Source of the DNA: Desulfobacterales bacterium
GTDB taxonomy: Bacteria; Desulfobacterota; Desulfobacteria; Desulfobacterales; JAFDDL01
NCBI GenBank assembly: GCA_040235505.1
Contig: JBECKW010000112.1
Coordinates: 3,625-67,624 of the forward strand
Reading direction: 5' to 3'
Length of the DNA: 64,000 nt
The position numbers and the translations under genes were made by a program. The notes under the pieces are model-generated. The model was not told the origin of the DNA and made no database searches. It saw only the letters and a list, made by a program, of their open reading frames with translations. Of this stretch, positions 17,179-61,450 are shown in pieces. How positions within the stretch are numbered: position 1 is the stretch's first letter; each line of letters starts with the position of its first letter.

Positions 17179-17311
17179 GAAGAGCGGAAGGCAGGAAGCG
17201 CCGAAGAGCCGTGAAAAACAGGGGGGCGGTCGTCCCTCTTCCTTCTCCCTTTCCCCCTTACGTCCTTCTGTTTTTTCACGGCTCTTCCGCTCTTCGCACC
17301 TTCCGCTCTTC
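17179..17311. repeat. Imperfect long inverted repeat built from GAAGAGC/GGAAGGC-type heptads
   Basis: Left arm 17179-17221, right arm 17268-17311. Ends are complementary (GAAGAGCGGAAGG / CCTTCCGCTCTTC; GAAGAGCCGTGAAAAA / TTTTTTCACGGCTCTTC). The ~46-nt spacer is C/T-rich. Confidence 0.7.
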
Positions 17312-20022: not shown

Positions 20023-20260
20023 GGGAACCGAGGGACGAGGGAAGACCGCTTCGCCAGGACGAGGGACGAAAGGGGCAACTGCTTTTACACGTCCTTTGTC
20101 CCGGCAGAGCGATTCATCAACGTCCTTCGGTTTTTTTCGTCCTGGGATCTTACAAAGTAATCATCTCTTATTCCCATGAAGTGCTCATTTTTCGCCTTTC
20201 AGCTTTTTGCGTCCCTCGTCCTAGTCCCGCCGTTTTTAGCGGGATCCCTCGGCTTTCTCC
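20023..20260. repeat. Inverted-repeat element with GAGGGAC-type heptad arms
   Basis: Left arm has CCGAGGGACGAGGGAA...AGGACGAGGGACG. Right arm has CGTCCCTCGTCCT...ATCCCTCGG, i.e. colinear reverse complements. Core is about 133 bp. Confidence 0.6.
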
Positions 20261-24359: not shown

Positions 24360-24833
24360 CTATCCTTTTTTCTGCAGCGGTAGAGAGGTCTTGCAAATCC
24401 GCCACCGGCCATCTTTGTACTGAAGCTGAAAGCTTGCATCGACATCATACGTTTTTCCAAGCTTAAAGATCCCGGCGACATACACATAAAGGGGGTTGAT
24501 ATCAAGACGCCGGTGGGCGGTTAAATGGACGACGGCGTCCGAATGATCGAGATATTCGGTCTTCGTTTCGATGTGGGAAAGGGCATATCGGGCGCATTTC
24601 GAGGAATATCCCCGCTCAGCAGCATTCGTATCGGATGTGTAGATGTAGTTGTCGACGGATGAGGCGTCACAGAGCCAATCGGTCATGGCGGGAGAAAGCT
24701 CGTAATAATCCTTCGCAAATGAAACGGCGGCGTCCGAGGGCGTATTCGAATGATCGAGTGCAATAAGTCCGACCTCCAGAAGCAAGCCGATCAGCACAAC
24801 GATAACCAGGGAAGTAATATTTTTACGGGTCAT
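24360..24833 (-). CDS. Membrane-anchored hypothetical protein
   Basis: Start at MTRKNITSLVIVVLIGLL after AAGGAG (track ORF begins 16 codons upstream). Single N-terminal TM helix. Lies 33 nt upstream of the HD gene. Confidence 0.5.
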   Translation of the reverse strand: MTRKNITSLVIVVLIGLLLEVGLIALDHSNTPSDAAVSFAKDYYELSPAMTDWLCDASSVDNYIYTSDTNAAERGYSSKCARYALSHIETKTEYLDHSDAVVHLTAHRRLDINPLYVYVAGIFKLGKTYDVDASFQLQYKDGRWRICKTSLPLQKKG

Positions 24834-24988
24834 GACCTTCTCCTTGCATATCATGATGGATTGAATCGTCAGCTTTTGCATCCCGCCGGTGGAATCCTCT
24901 TCACCGGCTCAAAGGGGTCAGATACCATGGAAACCAACTCTTGACAAGAAGTTTGTCTCCCCGATGCGGAGGAACCGTATTTAAAGCG

Positions 24989-25156
24989 CGAACATCCAAC
25001 GTCGAACATCCAACATCCAACGTCCAATGGAAGGATGGGCATCTGTTTTTAATATGCTCGTAAGCGTTACTTTCCTAGTGGTCCGTATTGGCCGTCGTAG
25101 GGAGCGGGGGTATCAAATGGATATAAATCCCTATTGGATGTTGGATGTTGGACGTT
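24989..25156. repeat. Heptad-armed inverted-repeat element, copy 1 (CCAACAT/CCAACGT words)
   Basis: Left array CGAACAT CCAACGT CGAACAT CCAACAT CCAACGT CCAATGG. Right array ATTGGATGTTGGATGTTGGACGTTC. 25-bp arms match with 2 mismatches. The 104-bp core has ends that resemble the 41500 copy in reverse orientation. Confidence 0.8.
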
Positions 25157-25264
25157 CATTTTTCGATTCCCGGCGGCTTTTCGGCACCGTGAATCTAATT
25201 CATTAATTACAGATCTATTTAAAAAGATAATTTTATTTATTTTTATCCGCCTTTGATAAAGAGG

Positions 25265-25291
25265 TTGACAACTTGCCTGCCCGAATATAAG
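25265..25291 (+). promoter_or_regulatory. Candidate promoter for rrf2-hmc
   Basis: TTGACA (25265-25270) and TATAAG (25286-25291), but with only 15-nt spacing. The same stretch also reads aGGttgacaacTTGCc (GG-N10-GC). Ambiguous. Confidence 0.3.
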
Positions 25292-25356
25292 AAAACTCTT
25301 TCTCGACTGTCACACTCGGGAAATAACCCGACACACAGAGTCAAGAAAGCATCCCT

Positions 25357-25791
25357 ATGCTGGTTACAAAGAAAAATCAATATGCCCTTCGCGCGGTGTT
25401 TGAACTTGCAAAACATCAGGGGAAGGGACCCATCAAGATATCCCATATCGCAGAGGTCCAGGCGATTCCGGAACGATTTTTAGAGGTTATCCTCGGTCAG
25501 CTGAAAAAAAGCGGTTTTGTCCAATCCAAACGAGGATATCAGGGGGGCTACCTTCTGGTGGTACCGGCGAGTGAACTTTCCGTTGGCGATCTCATGCGGT
25601 TTCTGCAACGCAACGCCCCCACCGAGGCATGCATGGCGCCGGTACCGGAAAGCAGCTGCCCGTTTCGGGGGGACTGTGTTTTTTTCCCCATGTGGCGTCG
25701 GGTCCGGGAGGCTATCTATGATGTGTACGACCAGACGAGCATCCAGGATCTTTTGGACGATGATCGGGGTGGCAAGGGTTATCCATTGTAA
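25357..25791 (+). CDS. Rrf2-family transcriptional regulator
   Basis: 144 aa. N-terminal wHTH string KNQYALRAVFELAKH...ISHIAEVQAIPERFLEVILGQLKKSGFVQSKRGYQGGYLL. C-terminal Cys residues (C..C......C). Confidence 0.9.
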   Translation: MLVTKKNQYALRAVFELAKHQGKGPIKISHIAEVQAIPERFLEVILGQLKKSGFVQSKRGYQGGYLLVVPASELSVGDLMRFLQRNAPTEACMAPVPESSCPFRGDCVFFPMWRRVREAIYDVYDQTSIQDLLDDDRGGKGYPL

Positions 25792-32255: not shown

Positions 32256-32469
32256 GCCGATCCGGGGAAGGATTTTGGCGGAAGCCGGGTCGCCTGTTTG
32301 AAACGGATTACAGATTCTTAAGAAAATCAGAATGGGATCCCGGAAATGAGTACTGTTCGCCCCAAGATTTATGGGGTCGTATCTTCAATGGTTCCGGCGC
32401 TGATTTTCTTTAGAAGCTGTTATCCGTGAGTTCGAGCCGGCTTCCGCCAAAATCCTTCCCCGGATCGGC
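32256..32469. repeat. 214-bp near-palindromic element with perfect 33-bp terminal inverted repeats
   Basis: 32256-32288 GCCGATCCGGGGAAGGATTTTGGCGGAAGCCGG is the exact reverse complement of 32437-32469. Inner segments also pair (AACGGATTACAGATTCTTAAGAAAATCAG with CTGATTTTCTTTAGAAGCTGTTATCCGTG). Confidence 0.9.
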
Positions 32470-32602: not shown

Positions 32603-35600
32603 ATGGGAGAAAAAGCAATGAACAAAGATGCCATGGATGTTATCACCACACGGGCCATTGACCGCGCCAAACTTTGGCAGGCGCTTTCCGACAGGGAGAA
32701 AACTCCCGACGAAAAAATCCTCCTCCGGCGGCTCGACAGACTCATTTCCCGACCCGACGGGAAGGCGGCCATGGTGAAGCTCATCGACCAGAGCTTCCGT
32801 TCGAAAAACCCCGAAAGGGTGGCCGATCAGATTCAATTCATTTTCAAGACCCACGGTATCCCGAATTATTTCTCCGCCGGAGACCGCCTGCTGGTACAGC
32901 TGTTTCTCCAGGTGGGCCGGCATTTCCCCCGCCTGTCGGTTCCCGCCATCATCGCCAGAATGCGAAAGGACAGCAGCCGGTCCATTATCTCCGGACACCG
33001 GCCGGCATTTACCCGATATCTGGACAAACGCAAAACCGAAGGCGTCCGCCTCAACATCAACCACCTCGGCGAGGCGGTACTCGGCGAAGGAGAGGCCCGC
33101 CGGCATTTTGAAACGTACCTTTCCGACCTGAACGATCCCCGCATCGAATGCATCTCGGTCAAGGCCTCATCCCTCTACTCCCAGATCACCCCCCTGGCCT
33201 TCGACGCGTCCCTCCGAATTCTCCGGGAACGCCTGGAAGGCCTTTACCGAACGGCCGCTCGCTGCCGCTACCGGTCGATGGACGGCCGACAGGTTCCCAA
33301 ATTCGTCAACCTGGACATGGAGGGTTACCGGGATGTCGAGCTCACGGTGGCCGCCTTTCGCGCCGCCCTCGAACTTCCGGAACTGGTGGACGTTTCGGCG
33401 GGCATCGCCCTCCAAGCCTACCTTCCGGATGCCGCCGCAATCCAGGAAACGCTCACTGCGTGGGCCGAAGACCGGGTCCGCCGGGGCGGGGCACCCATTT
33501 ATCTTCGCATCGTCAAGGGCGCCAACATGGAAATGGAACGCGTCGAATCGGCCATCCGAAACTGGCCCTCCCCGACCTTTGACAACAAGCTTGCCGTGGA
33601 CGCTAATTTCAAGCGAATGATAACCTTCGGCATGACGGGAGACAGGACCCGGTCCGTTCACCTCGGCATCGCCTCCCACAACCTGTTTGATATTGCCTGG
33701 GCCTGGGAGCTTTCCCTGGCGGAACGGGTCGCAGACAACGTCACCTTCGAGATGCTCGAGGGGATGGCCGACCATGTCCGGCGGGCTGTTCAGATGGATG
33801 TGGGTCGGATGCTTCTCTATGCGCCGGTGGCGGATCGGCACAATTTCATCAGCGCCATCGCCTACCTGGTGCGGCGTCTCGATGAGAACACCGGCTCCGA
33901 CAACTTCCTCCATCATGCCCCCCGGCTTCAAGCCGGATCGAAGGCCTGGCGGGGCCTGGAGCGCCAGTTCCTGGCCTCACTCCGGTCCTGGGACGAAATT
34001 CCGGGCGCCCCCTTCCGAACCCAGAACCGGTTGGCGGAATCCCCGTCTGAATCCCACCGGCTTTCTCCGGACGCCCCGTTCACCAACGAGCCGGATACCG
34101 ACTTTTCCCTTTCCCAAAACCGTGAGTGGGCTGGCGGCATCCGGGAAAAATGGAAACCCGGCCCCGAAACCGAAGCCATTGAAATCCCCCTCGCCATTGC
34201 CGGTGAAGATGTTTTTTCCGGTCGGGATACCGCCGGATGCCCAGACCCGTCCCGACCAAATCCATCCCAACCCGATCCATCCCAACCCGAGCCTTCCCAG
34301 GCGGGAGAGGGAAAGGCTGCCGCTCCCGGCCCATTTGCCCGGTTCGCCCTTGCCACCGAGGCGGACGCTGCCCGGGCAGCCCTCACGGCCGCCGATGATT
34401 CCGACGGATGGCGGAAAAAATCCGGGGAGGAGCGGCGACGGATTTTTGCCGAGGTGGCCAGGCAACTCCGAATCCACCGGGGGGACCTCATGGGAGCTGC
34501 GGCCGCCGAGACGGGAAAGCTTTTTCCCGAGTCGGACCCGGAGGTCTCCGAGGCCATCGATTTCGTGGAATATTATCCCCGCTCCGCTGACGCCTTTGTT
34601 CGGCTTCCCACAATCTCCGCCCAACCCAAGGGGGTGGGGTTGGTTATCGCTCCCTGGAATTTTCCCATTGCCATCCCCTGCGGCGGTATTACGGCGGCGC
34701 TTTCGGCCGGAAACACCGTCATTTTCAAACCTTCTTCCCAGGCGGTCCTCACGGGCCGGGAGCTTTGCCGCTGCTTCTGGGACGCCGGAATTTCGAAAAA
34801 CACGCTCCAGTTCATTCCCTGTCGGGGAGAAGCCGCCGCAGGCACCCTGACGCAGCGTCCGGAAATCGATTTCATTATCTTCACCGGCGGCACCGACACG
34901 GCTCTGAATATCCTCTCCGGGCGGCCGGACATCCGGCTGGCGGCGGAAACCGGGGGCAAAAACGCCACCATCGTGACGGCCATGGCCGATCGGGACCAGG
35001 CGATTTTGGACGTGGTGCATTCGGCCTTTTCAAACAGCGGCCAGAAATGCTCGGCCACCTCCCTCCTGATCCTGGAAAAGGAGGTCTATGACGATCCGAA
35101 CTTCAAGGCCCGGCTCGTAGATGCCGCCGAAAGCCTTCCGGTGGGCTCGGCCTGGGCCTTTGAAACCCGCATGGGACCCCTCATCCGGCCCCCTTCCGGG
35201 AAGCTCCTGGAGGCCCTCACCCGGCTTCTGCCCGGCGAGTCCTGGGCCTTGAAACCCCGGCGGCGCCCGGAAAACCCGTACCTGTGGACCCCCGGCATCA
35301 AATGGGGCGTACGCCCCGGCAGCATTACGCACACCACGGAATTTTTCGGCCCGCTCCTCGGGGTTATGCGGGCCGAAAACCTGGCGGAGGCCGTAGCCCT
35401 GGCGAATCAAACCGGCTACGGTCTCACCGCCGGCCTGGAAAGCCTGGATGCCCGGGAGCAGGAATACTGGAAGGAGTCCCTCCGGGCCGGGAATCTCTAC
35501 ATCAACCGCGGCACCACCGGGGCCGTAGTCCTGCGGCAACCCTTCGGCGGCATGGGAAAATCCGCCCTGGGCGCCGGTATCAAGGCGGGCGGTCCCAATT

Positions 35601-38837: not shown

Positions 38838-39766
38838 ACCGGGTCCCCAAACCGATTCTGCTGGTGGCCCTGGGGGGAAACGCCCTGATCCGGAAGGGTC
38901 AGCGGGGCACCCTCCGGGAGCAGCTCGATAATCTGAAGCTGCCCATGAAACAGATTGCCCGGCTTTCCCGAAGCTACCGGATCATCCTCACCCACGGAAA
39001 CGGCCCCCAGGTGGGCAATCTCCTGCTCCAGCAGGAATGCTGCCCCGACATTCCCCGCCTTCCCCTGGAAATCCTGGTCGCCCAGACCGAAGGCCAGATC
39101 GGTTACATGATCGAATCCACCCTGGACAGCGAATTGATGGCCATCGGTATCGATCACAAGCCCCTGATAAGTTTAATCACATACGTTGTGGTGGATAGGG
39201 ACGACCCCTCATTTAAAACCCCCTCCAAGCCCATCGGTCCCGTGTACCCTGAAGAAAAAATCGCGGGTCTTCCGTTTCCGGTGACCCGAACCGCCAAAGG
39301 CTTCCGTCGGGTGGTGGCCTCCCCCGAGCCGGTGACCATCATTGAAAAACGGGAAATCCAGAAGCTGATCGATGCGGATTTCATCGTTGTCTGTTGCGGG
39401 GGCGGCGGAATCCCCGTAATTCGGAAAGGACGGGCCTTCAACGGAGTGGATGCAGTGATCGACAAGGACCTTGCCGGCGGCAAGCTGGCGGCGGAAGTGG
39501 GGGTGGATATCTTCTGTATCGCCACGGATGTAAAGGGAGTGGCGCTGAATTACGGCACCGGAAACGAGCGGTTTTTAGAAGGGTTGACGGTGCCTGAGGC
39601 CGCCCGGTTTGCCGCCGAGGGCCATTTCCCCCCGGGCTCCATGGGGCCCAAGGTAACCGCGGCCACCCGCTTTTGCGCCGCCACCGGGCGCCGGGCCGTC
39701 ATCACCGCCATCGATGCCATAGAAGCGGCAGTGGCGGGACGGAAGGGAACTACGATCCTGCCGTAA
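38834..39766 (+). CDS. arcC: Carbamate kinase
   Basis: 310 aa. LVALGGNALIRKG...ILTHGNGPQVGNLLLQ and VVCCGGGGIPV motifs. GTG start. Confidence 0.9.
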   Translation: MNRVPKPILLVALGGNALIRKGQRGTLREQLDNLKLPMKQIARLSRSYRIILTHGNGPQVGNLLLQQECCPDIPRLPLEILVAQTEGQIGYMIESTLDSELMAIGIDHKPLISLITYVVVDRDDPSFKTPSKPIGPVYPEEKIAGLPFPVTRTAKGFRRVVASPEPVTIIEKREIQKLIDADFIVVCCGGGGIPVIRKGRAFNGVDAVIDKDLAGGKLAAEVGVDIFCIATDVKGVALNYGTGNERFLEGLTVPEAARFAAEGHFPPGSMGPKVTAATRFCAATGRRAVITAIDAIEAAVAGRKGTTILP

Positions 39767-39771
39767 GCCTG

Positions 39772-39860
39772 ATCCGACGACGTCGGATGCTGGGAGGCCG
39801 GGAGGCTTGGACGCTGGAAGGCAGAGAGGTCCCGACGCCGGGATCTTCGACTGGGAGGCA
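39772..39860. repeat. 17-nt palindrome followed by a degenerate 8-nt-period array (CNGGGAGG words)
   Basis: ATCCGACGaCGTCGGAT, then CTGGGAGG CCGGGAGG CTTGGACG CTGGAAGG CAGAGAGG ... GACTGGGAGGC. Confidence 0.6.
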
Positions 39861-39919
39861 AAGAGCTTTTTAACGATGCGCTTTTTTTGTGTGTTTCCGA
39901 ACAGGATTAAAAGGGCGAC

Positions 39920-40924
39920 ATGATGCATGACCCCGTAAAAAAGGGAATCATCGGCACTTTCATCTTCTTATTGGGGATGCAGGCTGTAAGCCTTGCGGCC
40001 GGCCTGGGCCCCTTGCAGACGGAGAACCGCTTTACCCCCCACCTGATGTTCCTGACGCCTGTGCCCACCGCACCGATGGACCTGTCCGGAAGCCGGCTGC
40101 AGGGCGCCTTGACGGTTAATTACAGCAGCCTGTTTGTCAACGAGGAATCGGCGCACTGGTCGGCCCTGATCGACATGGAGATGACAATCCTCGAGGGCTC
40201 CCTCGAATATCGTTTGAACCGGCGAGTCCGGGTGGGAATCCGTCTCCCGCTTGTCAGCATGAACAGCGGATTTATGGACAGTTTTTTAGAAAATTACCAC
40301 CATTCCCTGGGAGTGCCCGACTACGGGCGTGAAACCCGGCCGAAAAACGAATTTGCCTATCGGCTGCAAAAAAACGGTCTTGACTGGATATCCTCCCGTT
40401 CCGGCGGTCTGCATCTTGCCGACAGCAGCATTGATCTGAGGGTGGCGCTTCTGCGCAACGAGGGGGAATTGCCGCTGAGTGCCGATCTGCAGTATGTTCT
40501 CAAGCTCCCCCTCGGCAACGCCGAGCAGGGATTCGGCAGCGGAAAGATCGACCAGGGATTTTTTATACCCATGCAGCTGGATTTCTCATCCTGGGATATC
40601 TACCTGATGCCGGGAATCATCCTGCCGGCAAAACCCGATACCCTGGGGGCCGATGTCCATGTCAATACGATGGGCAGCGCATTCCTGGGGATTGACTATG
40701 CACTTTCCCCCCGGTGGTCGGCGGCGGCGCAGATCAACTACTATTCCTCGCCCCTTGAAACGACCGGTATTCGGCCACTGGACCAGGGGAGTTTCGAACT
40801 CGCACTGGGGGCCGTGCGACAGATGACGGCCGGAACCGCTCTGGAGGTCGCGTTCTGCGAAGACCTTTCACGCAGCGCCCCCGATTTTTCGCTCCAGGTA
40901 GGCCTGCGGTTCAACGCCTTTTAG
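39920..40924 (+). CDS. Putative outer-membrane beta-barrel protein (possibly DUF3187-like)
   Basis: 334 aa. Signal peptide. Alternating-hydrophobicity strands. C-terminus ...LQVGLRFNAF ends in Phe, as in an OMP beta-signal. Confidence 0.5.
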   Translation: MMHDPVKKGIIGTFIFLLGMQAVSLAAGLGPLQTENRFTPHLMFLTPVPTAPMDLSGSRLQGALTVNYSSLFVNEESAHWSALIDMEMTILEGSLEYRLNRRVRVGIRLPLVSMNSGFMDSFLENYHHSLGVPDYGRETRPKNEFAYRLQKNGLDWISSRSGGLHLADSSIDLRVALLRNEGELPLSADLQYVLKLPLGNAEQGFGSGKIDQGFFIPMQLDFSSWDIYLMPGIILPAKPDTLGADVHVNTMGSAFLGIDYALSPRWSAAAQINYYSSPLETTGIRPLDQGSFELALGAVRQMTAGTALEVAFCEDLSRSAPDFSLQVGLRFNAF

Positions 40925-41361: not shown

Positions 41362-41393
41362 ACTTTTCCTTGATTTGGATAAGGAGGTTGCCA

Positions 41394-41435
41394 TAGGCGA
41401 TAGGCCATGGGCTATAGGCTATGGGTGTAGGTTTA
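41394..41435. repeat. Unpaired degenerate heptad array (ATAGGCN x6)
   Basis: ATAGGCG ATAGGCC ATGGGCT ATAGGCT ATGGGTG TAGGTTT. Confidence 0.7.
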
Positions 41436-41499
41436 CAGCTAAACAACCTTTCTCAGGGATGTAGAGGCCAAGTCAAGGTTTATTTGTATCCATAGAAAT

Positions 41500-41731
41500 G
41501 AACGTCCAACGTTCAACATCCAATGTGGACTTTATATCGTTTGAGAATCCCTCGCCTCCGCTTGAAATATAGTTGAACTGCAGGCGACAACGAAATAAGC
41601 CTCTGAATACCTCAACCGGCCCTATCCTGCTTTTAATGTCGAACCCTTAATCCCGGCGTCGAGATTTCCTTTAAATCAGACCCCATCCTTTCATTGGATG
41701 TTGGATGTTCGACGTTGAACGTTGGACGTTC
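41500..41731. repeat. Heptad-armed inverted-repeat element, copy 2 (same family as 24989-25156, opposite orientation)
   Basis: Left arm GAACGTCCAACGTTCAACATCCAAT. Right arm ATTGGATGTTGGATGTTCGACGTTGAACGTTGGACGTTC. Core ends GGACTTTATATCGTTTGAGAATCCCTCGCCTCC and CAGACCCCATCCTTTC resemble the reverse complement of copy 1 (GGATTTATATCCATTTGATACCCCCGCTCC ... CAGATGCCCATCCTTCC). Confidence 0.8.
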
Positions 41732-41779
41732 GTCTGTTATTTTATGGGTAATATCAATTGCGCAAAGGAATTTTTTTTC

Positions 41780-45896: not shown

Positions 45897-45901
45897 CGAC
45901 A

Positions 45902-46097
45902 GTTACAGGTTGGCGGGTTCCAAGTTCCAGGTTAAAAAAGCAGGCGATGCTCCAGGTTGGCGCAGCGCCTGTTCGCGTGATAAGGCATACATTAAAAGCT
46001 CACCCCACTTCTGAACCCAAAATCTTAGAGCGCGCATTTCCTAAGATGCTTAGATGTCGCCGTTTAACCTGGAACGTGCAACCTGCAAACCTGAAAC
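45902..46097. repeat. Heptad-armed inverted-repeat element (CCAGGTT/CAAGTT words) overlapping the 3' end of the MscS-family ORF
   Basis: Left arm GTTACAGGTTGGCGGGTTCCAAGTTCCAGGTTAAA. Right arm TTTAACCTGGAACGTGCAACCTGCAAACCTGAAAC. About 35-bp arms with about 7 mismatches, 126-bp core. Confidence 0.75.
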
Positions 46098-47351
46098 TTT
46101 TTCTGTTGCCAGTTTCACAAGATCCGTCCCCGATGGGTACTGATAGACCTTCAGGTCGAACTCGCCGGCGATGGCCAGCAGATGGTCGAAAATGTCCGAC
46201 TGGATCGATTCATAATTGGCCCAGACCTTGTCTTTGCAAAACACGTAGATCTCCAGTGGAAGCCCGTGCTGGGTGGGGGCCAGTTGCCGGATCAGAAAGG
46301 TCATGTCGGTATTGATCATGGGATGGTTCTGAAGGTATGCGAAAACGTAGGCCCGGAATGTTCCGATATTGGTGAGCCGGCGGGCGTTTGCGCCGTCCCT
46401 GGTTTCGATGCCACGTTCGGCGTTGTGCGCTTCGATCTCCCGGTTTTTCCGCTGCATGTAATCTGCGATGTACCGGATTCTCGAAAACCGTTCGAGCATT
46501 TCCGGCGTACAGAAACGGATCGTATTCATGTCGATATAAACGGCCCGCTTGATGCGCCGCCCCTGTGATTCCTGCATGCCTCGCCAGTTTTTGAAAGAAT
46601 CGTTGATCAGAGCATAGGTCGGAATGGTGGTAATCGTCCTGTCGAAGTTGCGCACCTTCACCGTAGTGAGGGTGATGTCGATCACATCCCCGTCGGCGCC
46701 GTATTTGGGCATTTCGATCCAGTCCCCCTGTTTGAGCATCCGGTTTGAAATCAGCTGAATCCCTGCAACGAACCCCAGGATCGGGTCCTTGAAAATCAGC
46801 ATGAGCACGGCCGTCATAGCCCCCAGGCCGCTCAGCAAATACACCGGCGATCGATCCAGCACCACGGAAAGGGCCATGATCAGACCGGCGCACACCAGCA
46901 CGATCTTGAGCACCTGGGCAAATCCCTTGAGGGGAATCTCCCTGGAAACATCGAATCTCTGGTAAACGCCGTGAAAGAAATTAATCAATGCATCCAGGGC
47001 CAGAAGCACCACCACGATGAAATAGATACCAACGGCGCCGGAAGCGGCGGCGCTGACCCGGGGATAGGCACTCAGCACCAGCGGCAGAAAGAGCTGAAAA
47101 ACAATGGCCGGCACCAGCAGGGTCAGACGCATGAAAAACCGGCTCTCCTCCAGAAGATCGTCCCAGGTGGCCCGGGTGTGCCTGAAAATCCGGTGAACCA
47201 CCGTCGCCACGACCCGGCGGCTGATGAAAAAGGCGATAACCCCTGCCACCAGCACCAGAATGGTCAGAATGGTGCTGGCAAGGGCGCCGGTGATGCCCGC
47301 ATTGAGGTTGAATCCGGAAAGCCATGACCTCAGGAGTTCGAATAGGGACAT
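46050..47351 (-). CDS. Mechanosensitive ion channel (MscS) family protein
   Basis: 433 aa. N-terminal TM helices. Conserved beta-domain string GDWIEMPKYGADGDVIDITLTTVKVRNFDRTITTIPTYALI. RBS GGGAGG. Confidence 0.9.
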   Translation of the reverse strand: MSLFELLRSWLSGFNLNAGITGALASTILTILVLVAGVIAFFISRRVVATVVHRIFRHTRATWDDLLEESRFFMRLTLLVPAIVFQLFLPLVLSAYPRVSAAASGAVGIYFIVVVLLALDALINFFHGVYQRFDVSREIPLKGFAQVLKIVLVCAGLIMALSVVLDRSPVYLLSGLGAMTAVLMLIFKDPILGFVAGIQLISNRMLKQGDWIEMPKYGADGDVIDITLTTVKVRNFDRTITTIPTYALINDSFKNWRGMQESQGRRIKRAVYIDMNTIRFCTPEMLERFSRIRYIADYMQRKNREIEAHNAERGIETRDGANARRLTNIGTFRAYVFAYLQNHPMINTDMTFLIRQLAPTQHGLPLEIYVFCKDKVWANYESIQSDIFDHLLAIAGEFDLKVYQYPSGTDLVKLATEKVSGLQVARSRLNGDI

Positions 47352-61349: not shown

Positions 61350-61450
61350 GGTGAGGTTGAAGGCTGAAGGCCGAAGACTGAGAGAAAATAACGAATAAAA
61401 GCAGATCTTGCTATACCTTCAGTCTTCAGCCTTGAGTCTTCAGCCTTGTG
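61350..61450. repeat. Heptad-armed hairpin element (GAAGGCT/GAAGACT words)
   Basis: Left GGTGAGG TTGAAGG CTGAAGG CCGAAGA CTGAGAG. Right CCTTCAG TCTTCAG CCTTGAG TCTTCAG CCTTGTG. About 31-nt A-rich spacer. Confidence 0.75.

Follow-up and report, generated by a model that had tools for sequence, protein, structure and literature searches.

A heptad-armed hairpin element of a Desulfobacterales bacterium, probably a gene-less miniature of cassettes that carry a four-helix-bundle gene

Intervening sequences (IVS) of 23S rRNA that bear an ORF, as in Coxiella burnetii, Leptospira, Brucella and Xanthomonas, have complementary ends that form a stem of 25–40 bp. In Coxiella, the IVS has the S23p ORF and a terminal stem of 28 bp and carries GACAGAT heptamers in tandem where the RNase III cut was mapped; the number of heptamers in its 5' arm varies between strains (PMC4990558). 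The element at 24989–25165 of the window (the whole 64-kb stretch of DNA analysed here) has complementary ends of the same kind and also tandem heptads in its arms. Its full-length relatives resemble the 23S IVS further, in that the loop encodes an S23p/PF05635 protein in sense orientation and the ORF decays by deletion. Unlike the 23S IVS, the copies in the window are without an ORF and lie between protein-coding genes, not in helix 9, 25 or 45 of 23S rRNA, and their word is AACRTYS, whereas that of Coxiella is GACAGAT. A search with Rfam found no rRNA gene in the window.

Paired arrays of short tandem words have been annotated in Geobacter metallireducens, where classes 1–3 (Gmet_I sites; Aklujkar et al. 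2009) were named 'putative global regulator binding sites' (PMC2700814). By their description, the Geobacter sites have 3–5 tandem units of 7–9 nt and form opposite-strand pairs at variable distance, which is the same plan as that of the 24989 element. They occur in many copies, mostly between genes, one genome has several word classes, and they belong to a related lineage (former Deltaproteobacteria); in all this the elements described here are alike. The Geobacter words GTTGCTYN, TCTCCGTS[Y] and MTYCTGA differ from AACRTYS/TTSRAYG, and the Geobacter sites were read as IHF/HU sites, and neither a carried gene nor IVS was connected with them. In Xanthomonas, GGGAATC heptads occur in convergent pairs (Rehm et al. 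2015; PMC4692102). These are intergenic tandem heptads as in our case, with 70–75 opposite-strand pairs able to form stem-loops, and their unit number differs between relatives at conserved positions. They were the subject of a G-quadruplex study, are mostly located between co-directional genes and have no reported enclosed gene, whereas the elements of the window are mostly in divergent spacers. The STRR sequences of cyanobacteria are intergenic tandem heptanucleotides with many copies, and the window arrays share these features in a different taxon (Desulfobacterales). The 24989 element has at least three tandem units and an opposite-strand partner (loops of 5–480 nt in siblings) and is multi-copy and intergenic, as is characteristic of paired repeats. 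Its word did not match any of the published classes compared (GTTGCTYN, TCTCCGTS[Y], MTYCTGA, GGGAATC). The initial annotation had regarded inverted-pair heptad elements as undescribed. This does not hold, since Geobacter metallireducens (PMC2700814) and Xanthomonas (PMC4692102) have annotated elements of this plan, and the 23S rRNA IVS of Coxiella has heptamers in its arm (PMC4990558). The 24989-type elements are new members of an already known plan (Geobacter 2009, Xanthomonas 2015, Coxiella IVS 2016, STRR). Desulfosarcina ovata is among the named relatives, at 66% at the amino acid level.

REP/REPIN sequences with a RAYT gene are reportedly short intergenic inverted doublets that form hairpins. 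The RAYT gene, of single-copy type, is flanked by inverted REPs, and each gene lineage has its own repeat sequence. A REP is a 20–40-nt imperfect palindrome with a GTAG/CGTC head, and RAYT is a Y1 (IS200/IS605-like) transposase, the chemistry of which is known. The elements studied here are like REP/REPIN–RAYT by analogy only, in the hairpin doublets, the gene flanked by the same repeat and the lineage-specific repeat. They differ in that the arms consist of tandem heptads instead of palindromic units, and in that the gene encodes a PF05635 four-helix bundle without known catalytic activity.

The 24989 element and other hairpins of the window

The 24989 element adjoins a gene with a 173-aa ORF on one side and an Rrf2 gene on the other, and divergent promoters flank it (gene at 24360–24833 versus Rrf2 gene at 25357). 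It consists of the following parts.

24989–25030, plus strand: left arm, six degenerate heptads CGAACAT CCAACGT CGAACAT CCAACAT CCAACGT CCAATGG
25031–25132, plus strand: core (loop) of about 102–104 nt
25133–25165, plus strand: right arm, ATTGGATG TTGGATG TTGGACG TTC, then the conserved terminal CATTTTT

The left arm closes with the conserved inner boundary CCAATG, and the heptad array of the right arm (25133–25157) is ATTGGATGTTGGATGTTGGACGTTC. Both arrays read exactly as first reported. The reported 25-bp inverted arms around a 104-bp core were also recovered, as an inverted-repeat search gave arms of 25 nt with 92% complementarity and a spacing of 104 nt. The termini make an extended stem with arms of 25–32 nt and 84–92% complementarity. 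TRF found period 7 with 5.3 units on the left and 3.3 on the right, and the consensus of the degenerate 7-nt word is AACRTYS in the left arm and TTSRAYG in the right arm. The core (25031–25132) contains no four-helix-bundle ORF, intact or recognisable, and its conservation with the sibling element at 41497–41735 is limited to its two ends, GAAGGATGGG... and ...TCAAATGGATATAAATCCCT.

Other readings of the locus were rejected. The outer-left ATGAAC of many copies, which could have begun a leader peptide or ORF, is missing from the window copies, which have GACGAAC and GCGCGAAC instead. A 59-aa ORF at 25027–25206 is not conserved in the sibling copy, where a stop follows after 7 codons. A sigma-54 promoter in the core (TGG...GC) has a spacing that is off by one.

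The degenerate arm pattern was found 8 times in the window, whereas shuffles gave 0.00 matches. Six arrays of period 7 were found, against about 0.1 in shuffles, and all six are intergenic in a window with an intergenic share of 18%; every other period from 4 to 12 gave at most two arrays. The 24989 element has an MFE of −71 kcal/mol (z −5.2) and is thus far more stable than its shuffles, with z-scores of about −5 on both strands alike. The window contains the following further elements.

41497–41735, minus strand: homologous sibling element with the words of the 24989 element in opposite orientation and a core of about 165 nt (in element orientation, left arm 41690–41735 and right arm 41497–41526)
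41390–41425, strand not given: unpaired heptad array of about five ATAGGCN units, beside the thioesterase start
61354–61447, strand not given: heptad-armed hairpin with another word, GAAGGCT/GAAGACT ... AGTCTTC/AGCCTTC, loop of 37 nt
45901–46098, strand not given: hairpin with 7–8-nt arm units, CCAGGTT/CCAAGTT ... AACCTGG/AACCTGC, loop of 126 nt
17179–17311, strand not given: hairpin with irregular 7–9-nt units, GAAGAGC GGAAGGCA GGAAGCGCC GAAGAGC, loop of 53 nt
20023–20230, strand not given: weak degenerate candidate with GAGGGAC units and scattered GTCCCTC partners

The initial annotation proposed that the plan recurs at five loci with a word that differs per locus. Recurrence with a clear period of 7 was seen at 41500 and 61354. 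The elements at 45901 and 17179 are strong inverted repeats (z −5 to −7.5), but their periodicity is irregular (7–8 and 7–9 nt), and the signal at 20023 is weak (z −2.9), so that its membership in the set is doubtful. At 32256 there is a long hairpin that lacks heptads, in agreement with the initial annotation. The words do not differ at every locus, because the 41500 element has those of 24989, and the homology between 24989 (plus) and 41500 (minus) exceeds the heptads by about 15 nt inside each arm and includes the flank GTTCATTT. The ATAGGCN word, unpaired in the window, is a paired hairpin at the orthologous place in the relative L158, and the word family of the 45901 hairpin also makes a hairpin in this relative. 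Five of the seven window elements are in divergent promoter regions. This preference is not taken as general because the sample is small and the Xanthomonas data are opposite. The orientation of an element relative to its neighbours is uninformative, as in a divergent spacer either orientation faces a gene.

Cassettes with a four-helix-bundle gene and their miniatures

Arms of the AACRTYS type enclose a PF05635/TIGR02436 gene of about 120 aa in Desulfobacterota and Verrucomicrobiota (stretches L015, L025, L071, L104, L012, L152 and L157). PF05635/TIGR02436 is S23p, the '23S rRNA-intervening sequence protein', a four-helix bundle (FHB), and the family includes the DGR accessory protein Avd. Complementary arms of 16–74 nt were found at 19 of 19 FHB genes with readable flanks. 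Ten of these genes are plasmid-borne and were sampled independently by protein similarity alone, including that of N. punctiforme; an eleventh plasmid gene (Pseudanabaena) has heptad-rich flanks with a weak stem. In 50 kb of the N. punctiforme plasmid pNPUN02 there are just two period-7 arrays, and they bracket the single FHB gene among 47 genes. STRR-type heptads bracket every FHB gene examined in cyanobacteria, and the comparison with STRR in the initial annotation was therefore apt. Proteins with the same word average 66% identity across two phyla, and other pairs 31%. The arm word changes with the FHB protein lineage, with exceptions. A strict protein-to-word code was rejected, as proteins of 67% identity can carry different words. 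One FHB lineage alone comprises 7,927 clusters at 90% identity. The 64-kb window, including the hairpin cores, has no FHB gene or similarity to one.

Short gene-less copies grade into full-length ones via internal deletions. The 3' inner block GAGCGRAGCGAYATCATTATTCGATG is common to the miniatures L002, L019, L015b and L086 and to the full-length L157, truncated 'YDLEERL' ORF starts are present in L075, L094 and L099, and there are RNA contigs in which position ~472 of L015 is fused to positions late in the ORF or in the right arm. Descent by deletion from an FHB cassette is shown only for these four miniatures. What the window copies have in common with FHB-bearing elements is limited to the arms and the inner boundary, and their 3' inner block is of a different sub-family, so that for them we infer the same descent. 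Metatranscriptome assemblies contain sibling copies as well as the full-length cassette.

The presence of the element differs between relatives. In the syntenic region of L121 (Rrf2 77% identical), about 30 nt separate the conserved anchors, which were placed by eye, against about 230 nt in the window. The window copy is thus absent from the L121 spacer, although at this distance (77% aa) the junctions are not resolvable and loss and gain are indistinguishable. The left arm is retained at the same site in a relative of ~94% identity, and the orthologous spacer of L158 bears other, nested heptad hairpins. No direct repeat that would indicate a target-site duplication was visible at the ends of both window copies or at the aligned ends of 12 elements, the nearest empty site being distant.

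Left and right arms of the same element pair at 86.7%, compared with 76.9% for cross pairs (permutation p<1e-4). Mismatches were examined for strand bias on two independent data sets. There was no bias between G·U and A·C in the arms (55:41) and no excess of G·U on the mRNA strand (29:33, p=0.70). The lack of a G·U excess and the strand-symmetric complementarity indicate that arm pairing is kept at the DNA level. Strand symmetry favours DNA copying or conversion over selection on an RNA helix.

With a probability of about 0.7, we consider 24989–25165 to be a gene-less miniature belonging to dispersed heptad-armed hairpin repeats, of which the full-length relatives carry a PF05635/TIGR02436 gene. 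Its architecture would be that of the ORF-bearing 23S rRNA intervening sequences, here dispersed between ordinary genes. The element may be selfish or neutral, with gain, loss and turnover taking place at the DNA level, and the heptad arms may be its cis-acting ends. By analogy with the 23S rRNA IVS, any copy inside a transcript would offer a duplex of 25–40 bp as a substrate for RNase III. Because the 24989 element lies between divergent promoters, it is probably in neither mRNA and would have no dedicated function there.

Broader and alternative explanations

A broader reading, which we put forward tentatively, joins the heptad arrays and the PF05635/TIGR02436 proteins into one REPIN–RAYT-like system in which the protein acts on its own arms and the gene-less hairpins are non-autonomous satellites. 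The FHB protein would, for example, bind, copy or process the heptad arms that flank it, and STRR, the Geobacter and Xanthomonas pairs, the excess of heptamer repeats seen generally in bacteria and the ORF-bearing 23S IVS might all reflect this process. The searched literature did not yield a systematic link of heptad arms to a four-helix-bundle gene. Heptanucleotide tandem repeats have long been without a mechanism (STRR, Xanthomonas GGGAATC, the Geobacter paired sites, TAACTGA in Beggiatoaceae), and four-helix-bundle/S23p is a very large orphan family. The complementary arms, the word that tracks the lineage and the gene-less series tie the heptad repeats and the FHB family together and to the 23S rRNA intervening sequences. 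It becomes directly testable whether the FHB protein binds or processes its own arms and whether they depend on it to spread. In genome annotation, heptad hairpins should not be labelled as sRNA genes or regulator sites by default.

The arrays could instead be, as the initial annotation also offered, opposed protein-binding sites that regulate or architecturally organise divergent promoters, bound by a nucleoid protein (IHF/HU) or by the FHB protein itself. Tandem direct repeats are typical of cooperative protein binding, the location of five of the seven window elements would be suitable, and strand-symmetric mismatches fit a role of double-stranded DNA. The equivalent Geobacter sites were so interpreted by Aklujkar et al. 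(PMC2700814), and the S23p homologue XCC0516 is a homopentameric toroid, a number near the ~4–6 units of many arms (PMC4990558). However, each left arm fits its own right arm best, whereas binding sites should match a consensus, and the many words per genome would require many regulators. Moreover, one relative conserves the Rrf2 operator-like repeats but lacks the element in its syntenic promoter region, and the Xanthomonas pairs avoid divergent regions. We therefore consider this explanation unlikely.

Slightly less probable is a structured ncRNA gene or cis-regulatory RNA, either an sRNA or a stabilising, terminating or processing UTR element, that would function via the long helix. The fold, far more stable than shuffles, is consistent with such a role, as is the occurrence of sibling copies and arm sequences in metatranscriptome assemblies, where an X6 contig contains a sibling copy with a 39-nt core and other contigs extend from the left arm into the FHB ORF; this RNA evidence consists of assembled contigs that possibly include carried-over DNA. 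Furthermore, the Xanthomonas heptad repeats are mostly transcribed, the terminal pairing often extends into a run of A and a run of T, as in a bidirectional terminator, and RNase III processing is proven for IVS stems. Against this, Rfam 15 gave no match for the whole window at the gathering score or for 24900–25260 at E<=1, folding is equally good on the two strands, the core differs in sequence and length between copies, and the absence of a G·U/A·C bias, with no G·U excess on the sense strand, gives no indication of a selected RNA helix. A promoter and terminator scan found nothing bounding the 24989 element, which sits between two divergent promoters and upstream of both as inferred. RNA contigs of the Rrf2 message begin downstream of it, and its exact copy was absent from the RNA runs. 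The suggestion of a structured sRNA gene in the initial annotation was thus not borne out. The right arm contains GGAUGU, which is similar to the CsrA SELEX consensus. A role as a CsrA sponge was rejected, because the stem would sequester the GGA motifs, other words are without GGA and the relation to FHB cassettes explains the arms.

The 'MITE-like mobile hairpins' also suggested there came closest, in that the elements are short, non-coding, multi-copy and intergenic, have terminal inverted repeats, are present or absent at a syntenic site and form a series from longer, gene-carrying relatives to deletion derivatives with the same ends. A classical MITE, an IS deletion derivative that a transposase, recognising its inverted ends, would move in trans, is nevertheless the least probable of these alternatives, as the only gene found between the ends encodes a ~120-aa four-helix bundle without a match to any transposase family, no target-site duplication was seen at the window copies or in aligned ends, and the ends are arrays of variable unit number, not a fixed TIR, and wholly different between lineages of one cassette. 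No transposase, recombinase or reverse transcriptase was found associated with these elements.

Copy number and phyletic breadth of the arm word

The 24989 arm word is multi-copy in the source community. In the home metagenomes, contig depth rises 4–7x over the arms, and many arm-only contigs continue into differing flanks. The summed contig depth of the left arm was 377 and 4,956 in two mangrove metagenomes, compared with about 2 for the flanks. Nine contigs of P0050 represent one genomic site in several samples and do not provide independent insertion sites. Beyond these metagenomes, the arm word was found in at least 119 genome stretches, many of them with minus/plus pairs 5–480 nt apart, in Desulfobacterota, Verrucomicrobiota, Planctomycetota, Acidobacteriota, Bacteroidota and others. 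The hairpin arms break short-read assemblies, and contig ends fall in the arms.

The heptad hairpin and its spacer

The element at 24989-25165 is real and stands above chance. Its two arrays were read directly from the sequence:

24989-25030, left array: six degenerate heptads, CGAACAT CCAACGT CGAACAT CCAACAT CCAACGT CCAATGG
25133-25157, right array: ATTGGATG TTGGATG TTGGACG TTC

Tandem Repeats Finder gave both arrays a period of 7, with 5.3 and 3.3 copies. The 25-nt inverted arms around a 104-nt core, as described in the initial annotation, were recovered by a repeat finder at 92% complementarity, together with a longer 32-nt pairing. The degenerate arm (TTSRAYG three times, then TTS) has eight matches in the window and none in 100 shuffles. 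A period scan of the window found six period-7 arrays, compared with about 0.1 in shuffles, and at most two arrays for each other period from 4 to 12. All six are intergenic (P ~3e-5, because intergenic DNA makes up 18% of the window). Folding, which had been proposed as a check, gave a z of about -5 against shuffles on either strand of the element region.

On one side of the element is a small minus-strand gene (start at 24833, preceded by AAGGAG); on the other is a regulator gene of the Rrf2 family (25357-25791), with a multihaem cytochrome c gene after it. A minus-strand block, TTGTCA-17 nt-TATC[TA]G, at about 24929-24957 is kept in a relative, and the Rrf2 gene has a TTGACA box in front of it, at 25267. 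We infer that these are the two divergent promoters; if both are right, the element lies between them and outside both messages. RNA contigs of relatives start at 25253 and 25314, downstream of the element. At this locus the element is likely a silent passenger between two putative promoters. Between the TTGACA box and the Rrf2 start codon, operator-like repeats (TTTCTCGACT ... CTCGGGAAATAACCCGAC ... AGTCAAGAAAG, 25267-25356) show conservation across six metagenome relatives (L121-L126); they probably represent the Rrf2 autoregulatory site. The source organism is uncultured and comes from sediment metagenomes. Its nearest named relatives are Desulfobacterales, and its radical-SAM protein is 66% identical in Desulfosarcina ovata.

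Related repeats in the window and in the literature

The recurrence of this plan along the window, as first listed, stood in part. The elements at 41500 and 61354 are clear heptad hairpins; at 45901 and 17179 the inverted repeats are strong and their units irregular (7-9 nt); 20023 is a weak candidate (fold z -2.9). The suggestion that the word differs at each locus fails for the 41500 element (41497-41735), which uses the words of the window element and, on sequence comparison, is a homologous copy of it in opposite orientation. Also common to both are some 15 nt on the inner side of either arm (CCAATGRAAGGATGGG; TCAAAYG.ATATAAA.TCC..ATTGG), as well as the terminal GTTCATTT, and the middles of their cores are unlike in sequence and length. 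Three further repeats of the window are as follows:

32256-32469, nested hairpin: 214 nt, near-perfect, heptad periodicity absent, z ~-13
39783-39822, unpaired 8-nt-period array: CTGGGAGG CCGGGAGG CTTGGACG CTGGAAGG CAGAGAGG, within the 39766-39920 spacer
41390-41425, unpaired heptad array: ATAGGCN about five times, ~30 nt upstream of a thioesterase start codon

The nested hairpin, correctly described before as long and free of heptads, has outer arms of 37 nt (97% complementary) and inner arms of 28 nt (89%). It lies in a divergent spacer upstream of a 1230-aa ORF at 32603 and is probably a separate repeat class.

The initial annotation knew of no inverted-pair heptad elements in sulfate reducers, but the plan had been published for Geobacter metallireducens (PMC2700814) and Xanthomonas (PMC4692102). 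Aklujkar et al. 2009 described three Geobacter classes whose members pair across opposite strands with variable spacing, classes 1 and 2 being tandem 8-9-nt units and class 3 five tandem heptanucleotides; their guess for the paired sites was IHF/HU binding (PMC2700814). The octad array at 39783-39822 recalls the octanucleotide class of Geobacter. For Xanthomonas, Rehm et al. 2015 counted 70-75 pairs in which GGGAATC arrays converge from opposite strands, mostly transcribed and mostly in spacers of co-directional genes (PMC4692102), whereas the listed window elements, all intergenic, lie between divergent genes in five of seven cases. TAACTGA direct repeats are known from Beggiatoaceae, cyanobacteria and Bacteroidetes (MacGregor 2015, PMC4679880). 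The 23S rRNA intervening sequence (IVS) of Coxiella, 428 nt long and located in helix 45, is a hairpin element whose terminal stem measures 28 bp and which contains an S23p ORF; its 5' arm carries tandem GACAGAT heptamers whose count varies among strains (Warrier et al. 2016, PMC4990558). RNase III excises it, with the 5' cut mapping at the first repeat; the ORF is in decay, and the authors cite older proposals of IVSs as mobile elements (PMC4990558). The inverted-pair heptad-array plan is thus on record, one of its carriers being a relative of sulfate reducers, and the window element joins the known paired heptad-array hairpins as a new member. By analogy with Coxiella, the stem of transcribed copies would be expected to be cleaved by RNase III.

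Four-helix-bundle genes between heptad arms

At several loci with the same arms, the left arm directly precedes an ORF of about 120 aa, with the right arm lying behind its stop codon. This ORF matches two families: PF05635, the 23S rRNA-intervening sequence protein, at E 2e-14, and TIGR02436, the four helix bundle protein (FHB), at E 4e-25. Such cassettes with the same word occur in Desulfobacterota (L015, L025, L012, L152 and L157, the last being Desulfobacteraceae Eth-SRB1) and in Verrucomicrobiota (L071, L104); the 64-kb window itself holds no FHB gene. FHB genes elsewhere in the fetched loci also have inverted heptad arms with other words:

L051: GATGAAT...ATTCATC
L083: AGTAGCC...GACTACT
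L021: GGCAAAG...CCTTTGC

Because these loci had been picked by heptad pattern, an independent sample was drawn by tblastn of annotated plasmids, which gave 30 records with FHB genes. Eleven were examined, from Nostoc, Planktothrix, Gloeocapsa, Pseudanabaena, Euhalothece, Chlorohelix, Bernardetia, Chondrinema and Treponema. Tandem heptads flank the gene on both sides in 11/11, and the two arrays are reverse complements in at least nine of the 11, one with a perfect 32-bp stem (AATTCGT/ACGAATT). As a control, a 50-kb stretch of N. punctiforme pNPUN02 with 47 genes has exactly two period-7 arrays, and these flank its sole FHB gene. Complementary arms of 16-74 nt were found at all 19 FHB genes with readable flanks.

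The plasmid genes lie within operons, co-oriented with their neighbours (helicase/FHB/N6-methylase, DrmD/FHB/PglX, DUF1156/FHB/Swt1-HEPN, RND adaptor/FHB/permease and FHB/cas1; L143, L144, L147, L150, L151, L148). Several of these operons are defence systems. Gloeocapsa and Chlorohelix both have the DUF1156/Swt1 arrangement; the FHB proteins there are 69% identical, and the word is ATTTTAG in each.

A series of deletions leading from cassettes to gene-less short hairpins exists, judged by shared ends, the inner block of some short copies, truncated ORFs and RNA contigs that carry the junction. In the alignment of ends, short and full-length copies agree in an A-rich outer edge leading into GAYGAAC, in the heptads, and in C[CG]AATG... 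as inner boundary, and the 3' inner block GAGCGRAGCGAYATCATTATTCGATG is common to the short copies L002, L019, L015b and L086 and the full-length L157. The cores of L075, L094 and L099 open with truncated FHB N-termini. In four metatranscriptomes the gene body is covered end to end, with contigs spanning from the left arm into the ORF, and many RNA contigs join position ~472 of L015, just inside the left arm, to the late ORF or the right arm. This suggests that ~472 is a preferred deletion point in the conversion. The contigs with this breakpoint (runs X13, X15, X17, X19) have a common 5' breakpoint, varied 3' points and skips of 220-543 nt.

With a probability of roughly 0.7, the window element is related to an IVS-type cassette carrying a four-helix-bundle gene, and is itself gene-less and non-autonomous. 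The homology of the two window copies to FHB-bearing elements is confined to arms and boundary; by their 3' inner block they fall into a sub-family of their own, together with L111 and an RNA contig with a 39-nt core. In the literature we found neither a statement that FHB/S23p genes generally have such arms, which is weak evidence given poor coverage of subscription journals, nor intergenic heptad hairpins described as miniature FHB cassettes, again weak evidence given thin coverage of journals and curator notes. A bolder and less probable reading is that the protein and the arrays form one system, analogous to REPIN-RAYT.

FHB proteins with the same word have a mean identity of 66% (minimum 50% across two phyla), and those with different words 31%, with exceptions up to 67%. 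Word and protein are for the most part co-inherited, with occasional replacement of the word. The 67% pairs contradict a strict protein-to-word code. The lineage with the window word (L015 query) comprises 7,927 clusters at E<=1e-10, the best 120 of which are 88-97% identical and come from many different Desulfobacterota MAGs. Such conservation and abundance are unusually high for a 121-aa protein annotated without function.

Arm maintenance, turnover and spread

Since the family draws on few words, left and right arms taken from different elements already match fairly well (76.9%). Own partners pair at 86.7% (permutation p<1e-4), and therefore the two arms of an element co-vary. Selection on an RNA helix would predict G·U mismatches on the transcribed strand, and there is no such bias: transition mismatches are 55 G·U and 41 A·C in 31 same-word pairs, and 29 and 33 (p=0.70) in 19 FHB cassettes when scored along the known mRNA strand. 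Complementarity is strand-symmetric and thus argues for origin or maintenance at the DNA level, away from conserved RNA structure. Examples would be copying or conversion between arms, or recent inverted duplication.

Comparison of orthologous spacers, another proposed check, revealed both presence/absence and replacement. On the syntenic metagenome contig L121, whose Rrf2 is 77% identical, the minus-strand gene start and the Rrf2 promoter/operator block are as in the window, and the spacer has no heptad arrays. The anchor-to-anchor distance is ~30 nt against ~230 nt in the window, a difference that includes the whole element. Close relatives keep the element, since the sequence of a ~94%-identical one enters the left arm at this very site. 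The 41500 copy lies in a thioesterase/radical-SAM spacer; in L158, an 80% identical relative, the AACGTCC element is absent from the orthologous spacer, which holds two other, nested heptad hairpins. The outer one (2056-2089 / 2304-2351) has the word of the unpaired array 41390-41425 and the inner one belongs to the word family of the 45901 element. L121 and L158 thus mark the two spacers as places where insertion or replacement has recurred. A gene that weakly matches PF05635 (L160 1-13) lies 2.5 kb from the orthologue of the window radical-SAM gene in a 5.8-Mb relative genome.

The window element belongs to a multi-copy, widespread family. When contigs of the home metagenomes were aligned to the locus, depth rose 4-7-fold over the arms; many contigs match an arm alone and then enter other flanks, one being the 41500 copy. 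In two mangrove metagenomes the left-arm summed contig depth is 377 and 4,956, compared with ~2 for the flanks, and many sibling hairpins have 23-40-nt cores. With one genome per species, the arm pattern occurs in at least 119 genome stretches; the matches listed fall in Desulfobacterota, Verrucomicrobiota, Planctomycetota, Acidobacteriota, Bacteroidota and others, and many are minus/plus pairs, the inverted plan of the window element. In the 31 paired elements extracted, stem length ranges from 19 to 51 nt and loop length from 5 to 479 nt. Heptad arrays are themselves arrayed at a higher order in L021 (5161-5732), where six tandem ~85-nt units, each with CCTTTGC-type heptads and a TTCGATG-type right arm, adjoin the FHB gene armed with GGCAAAG/CCTTTGC.
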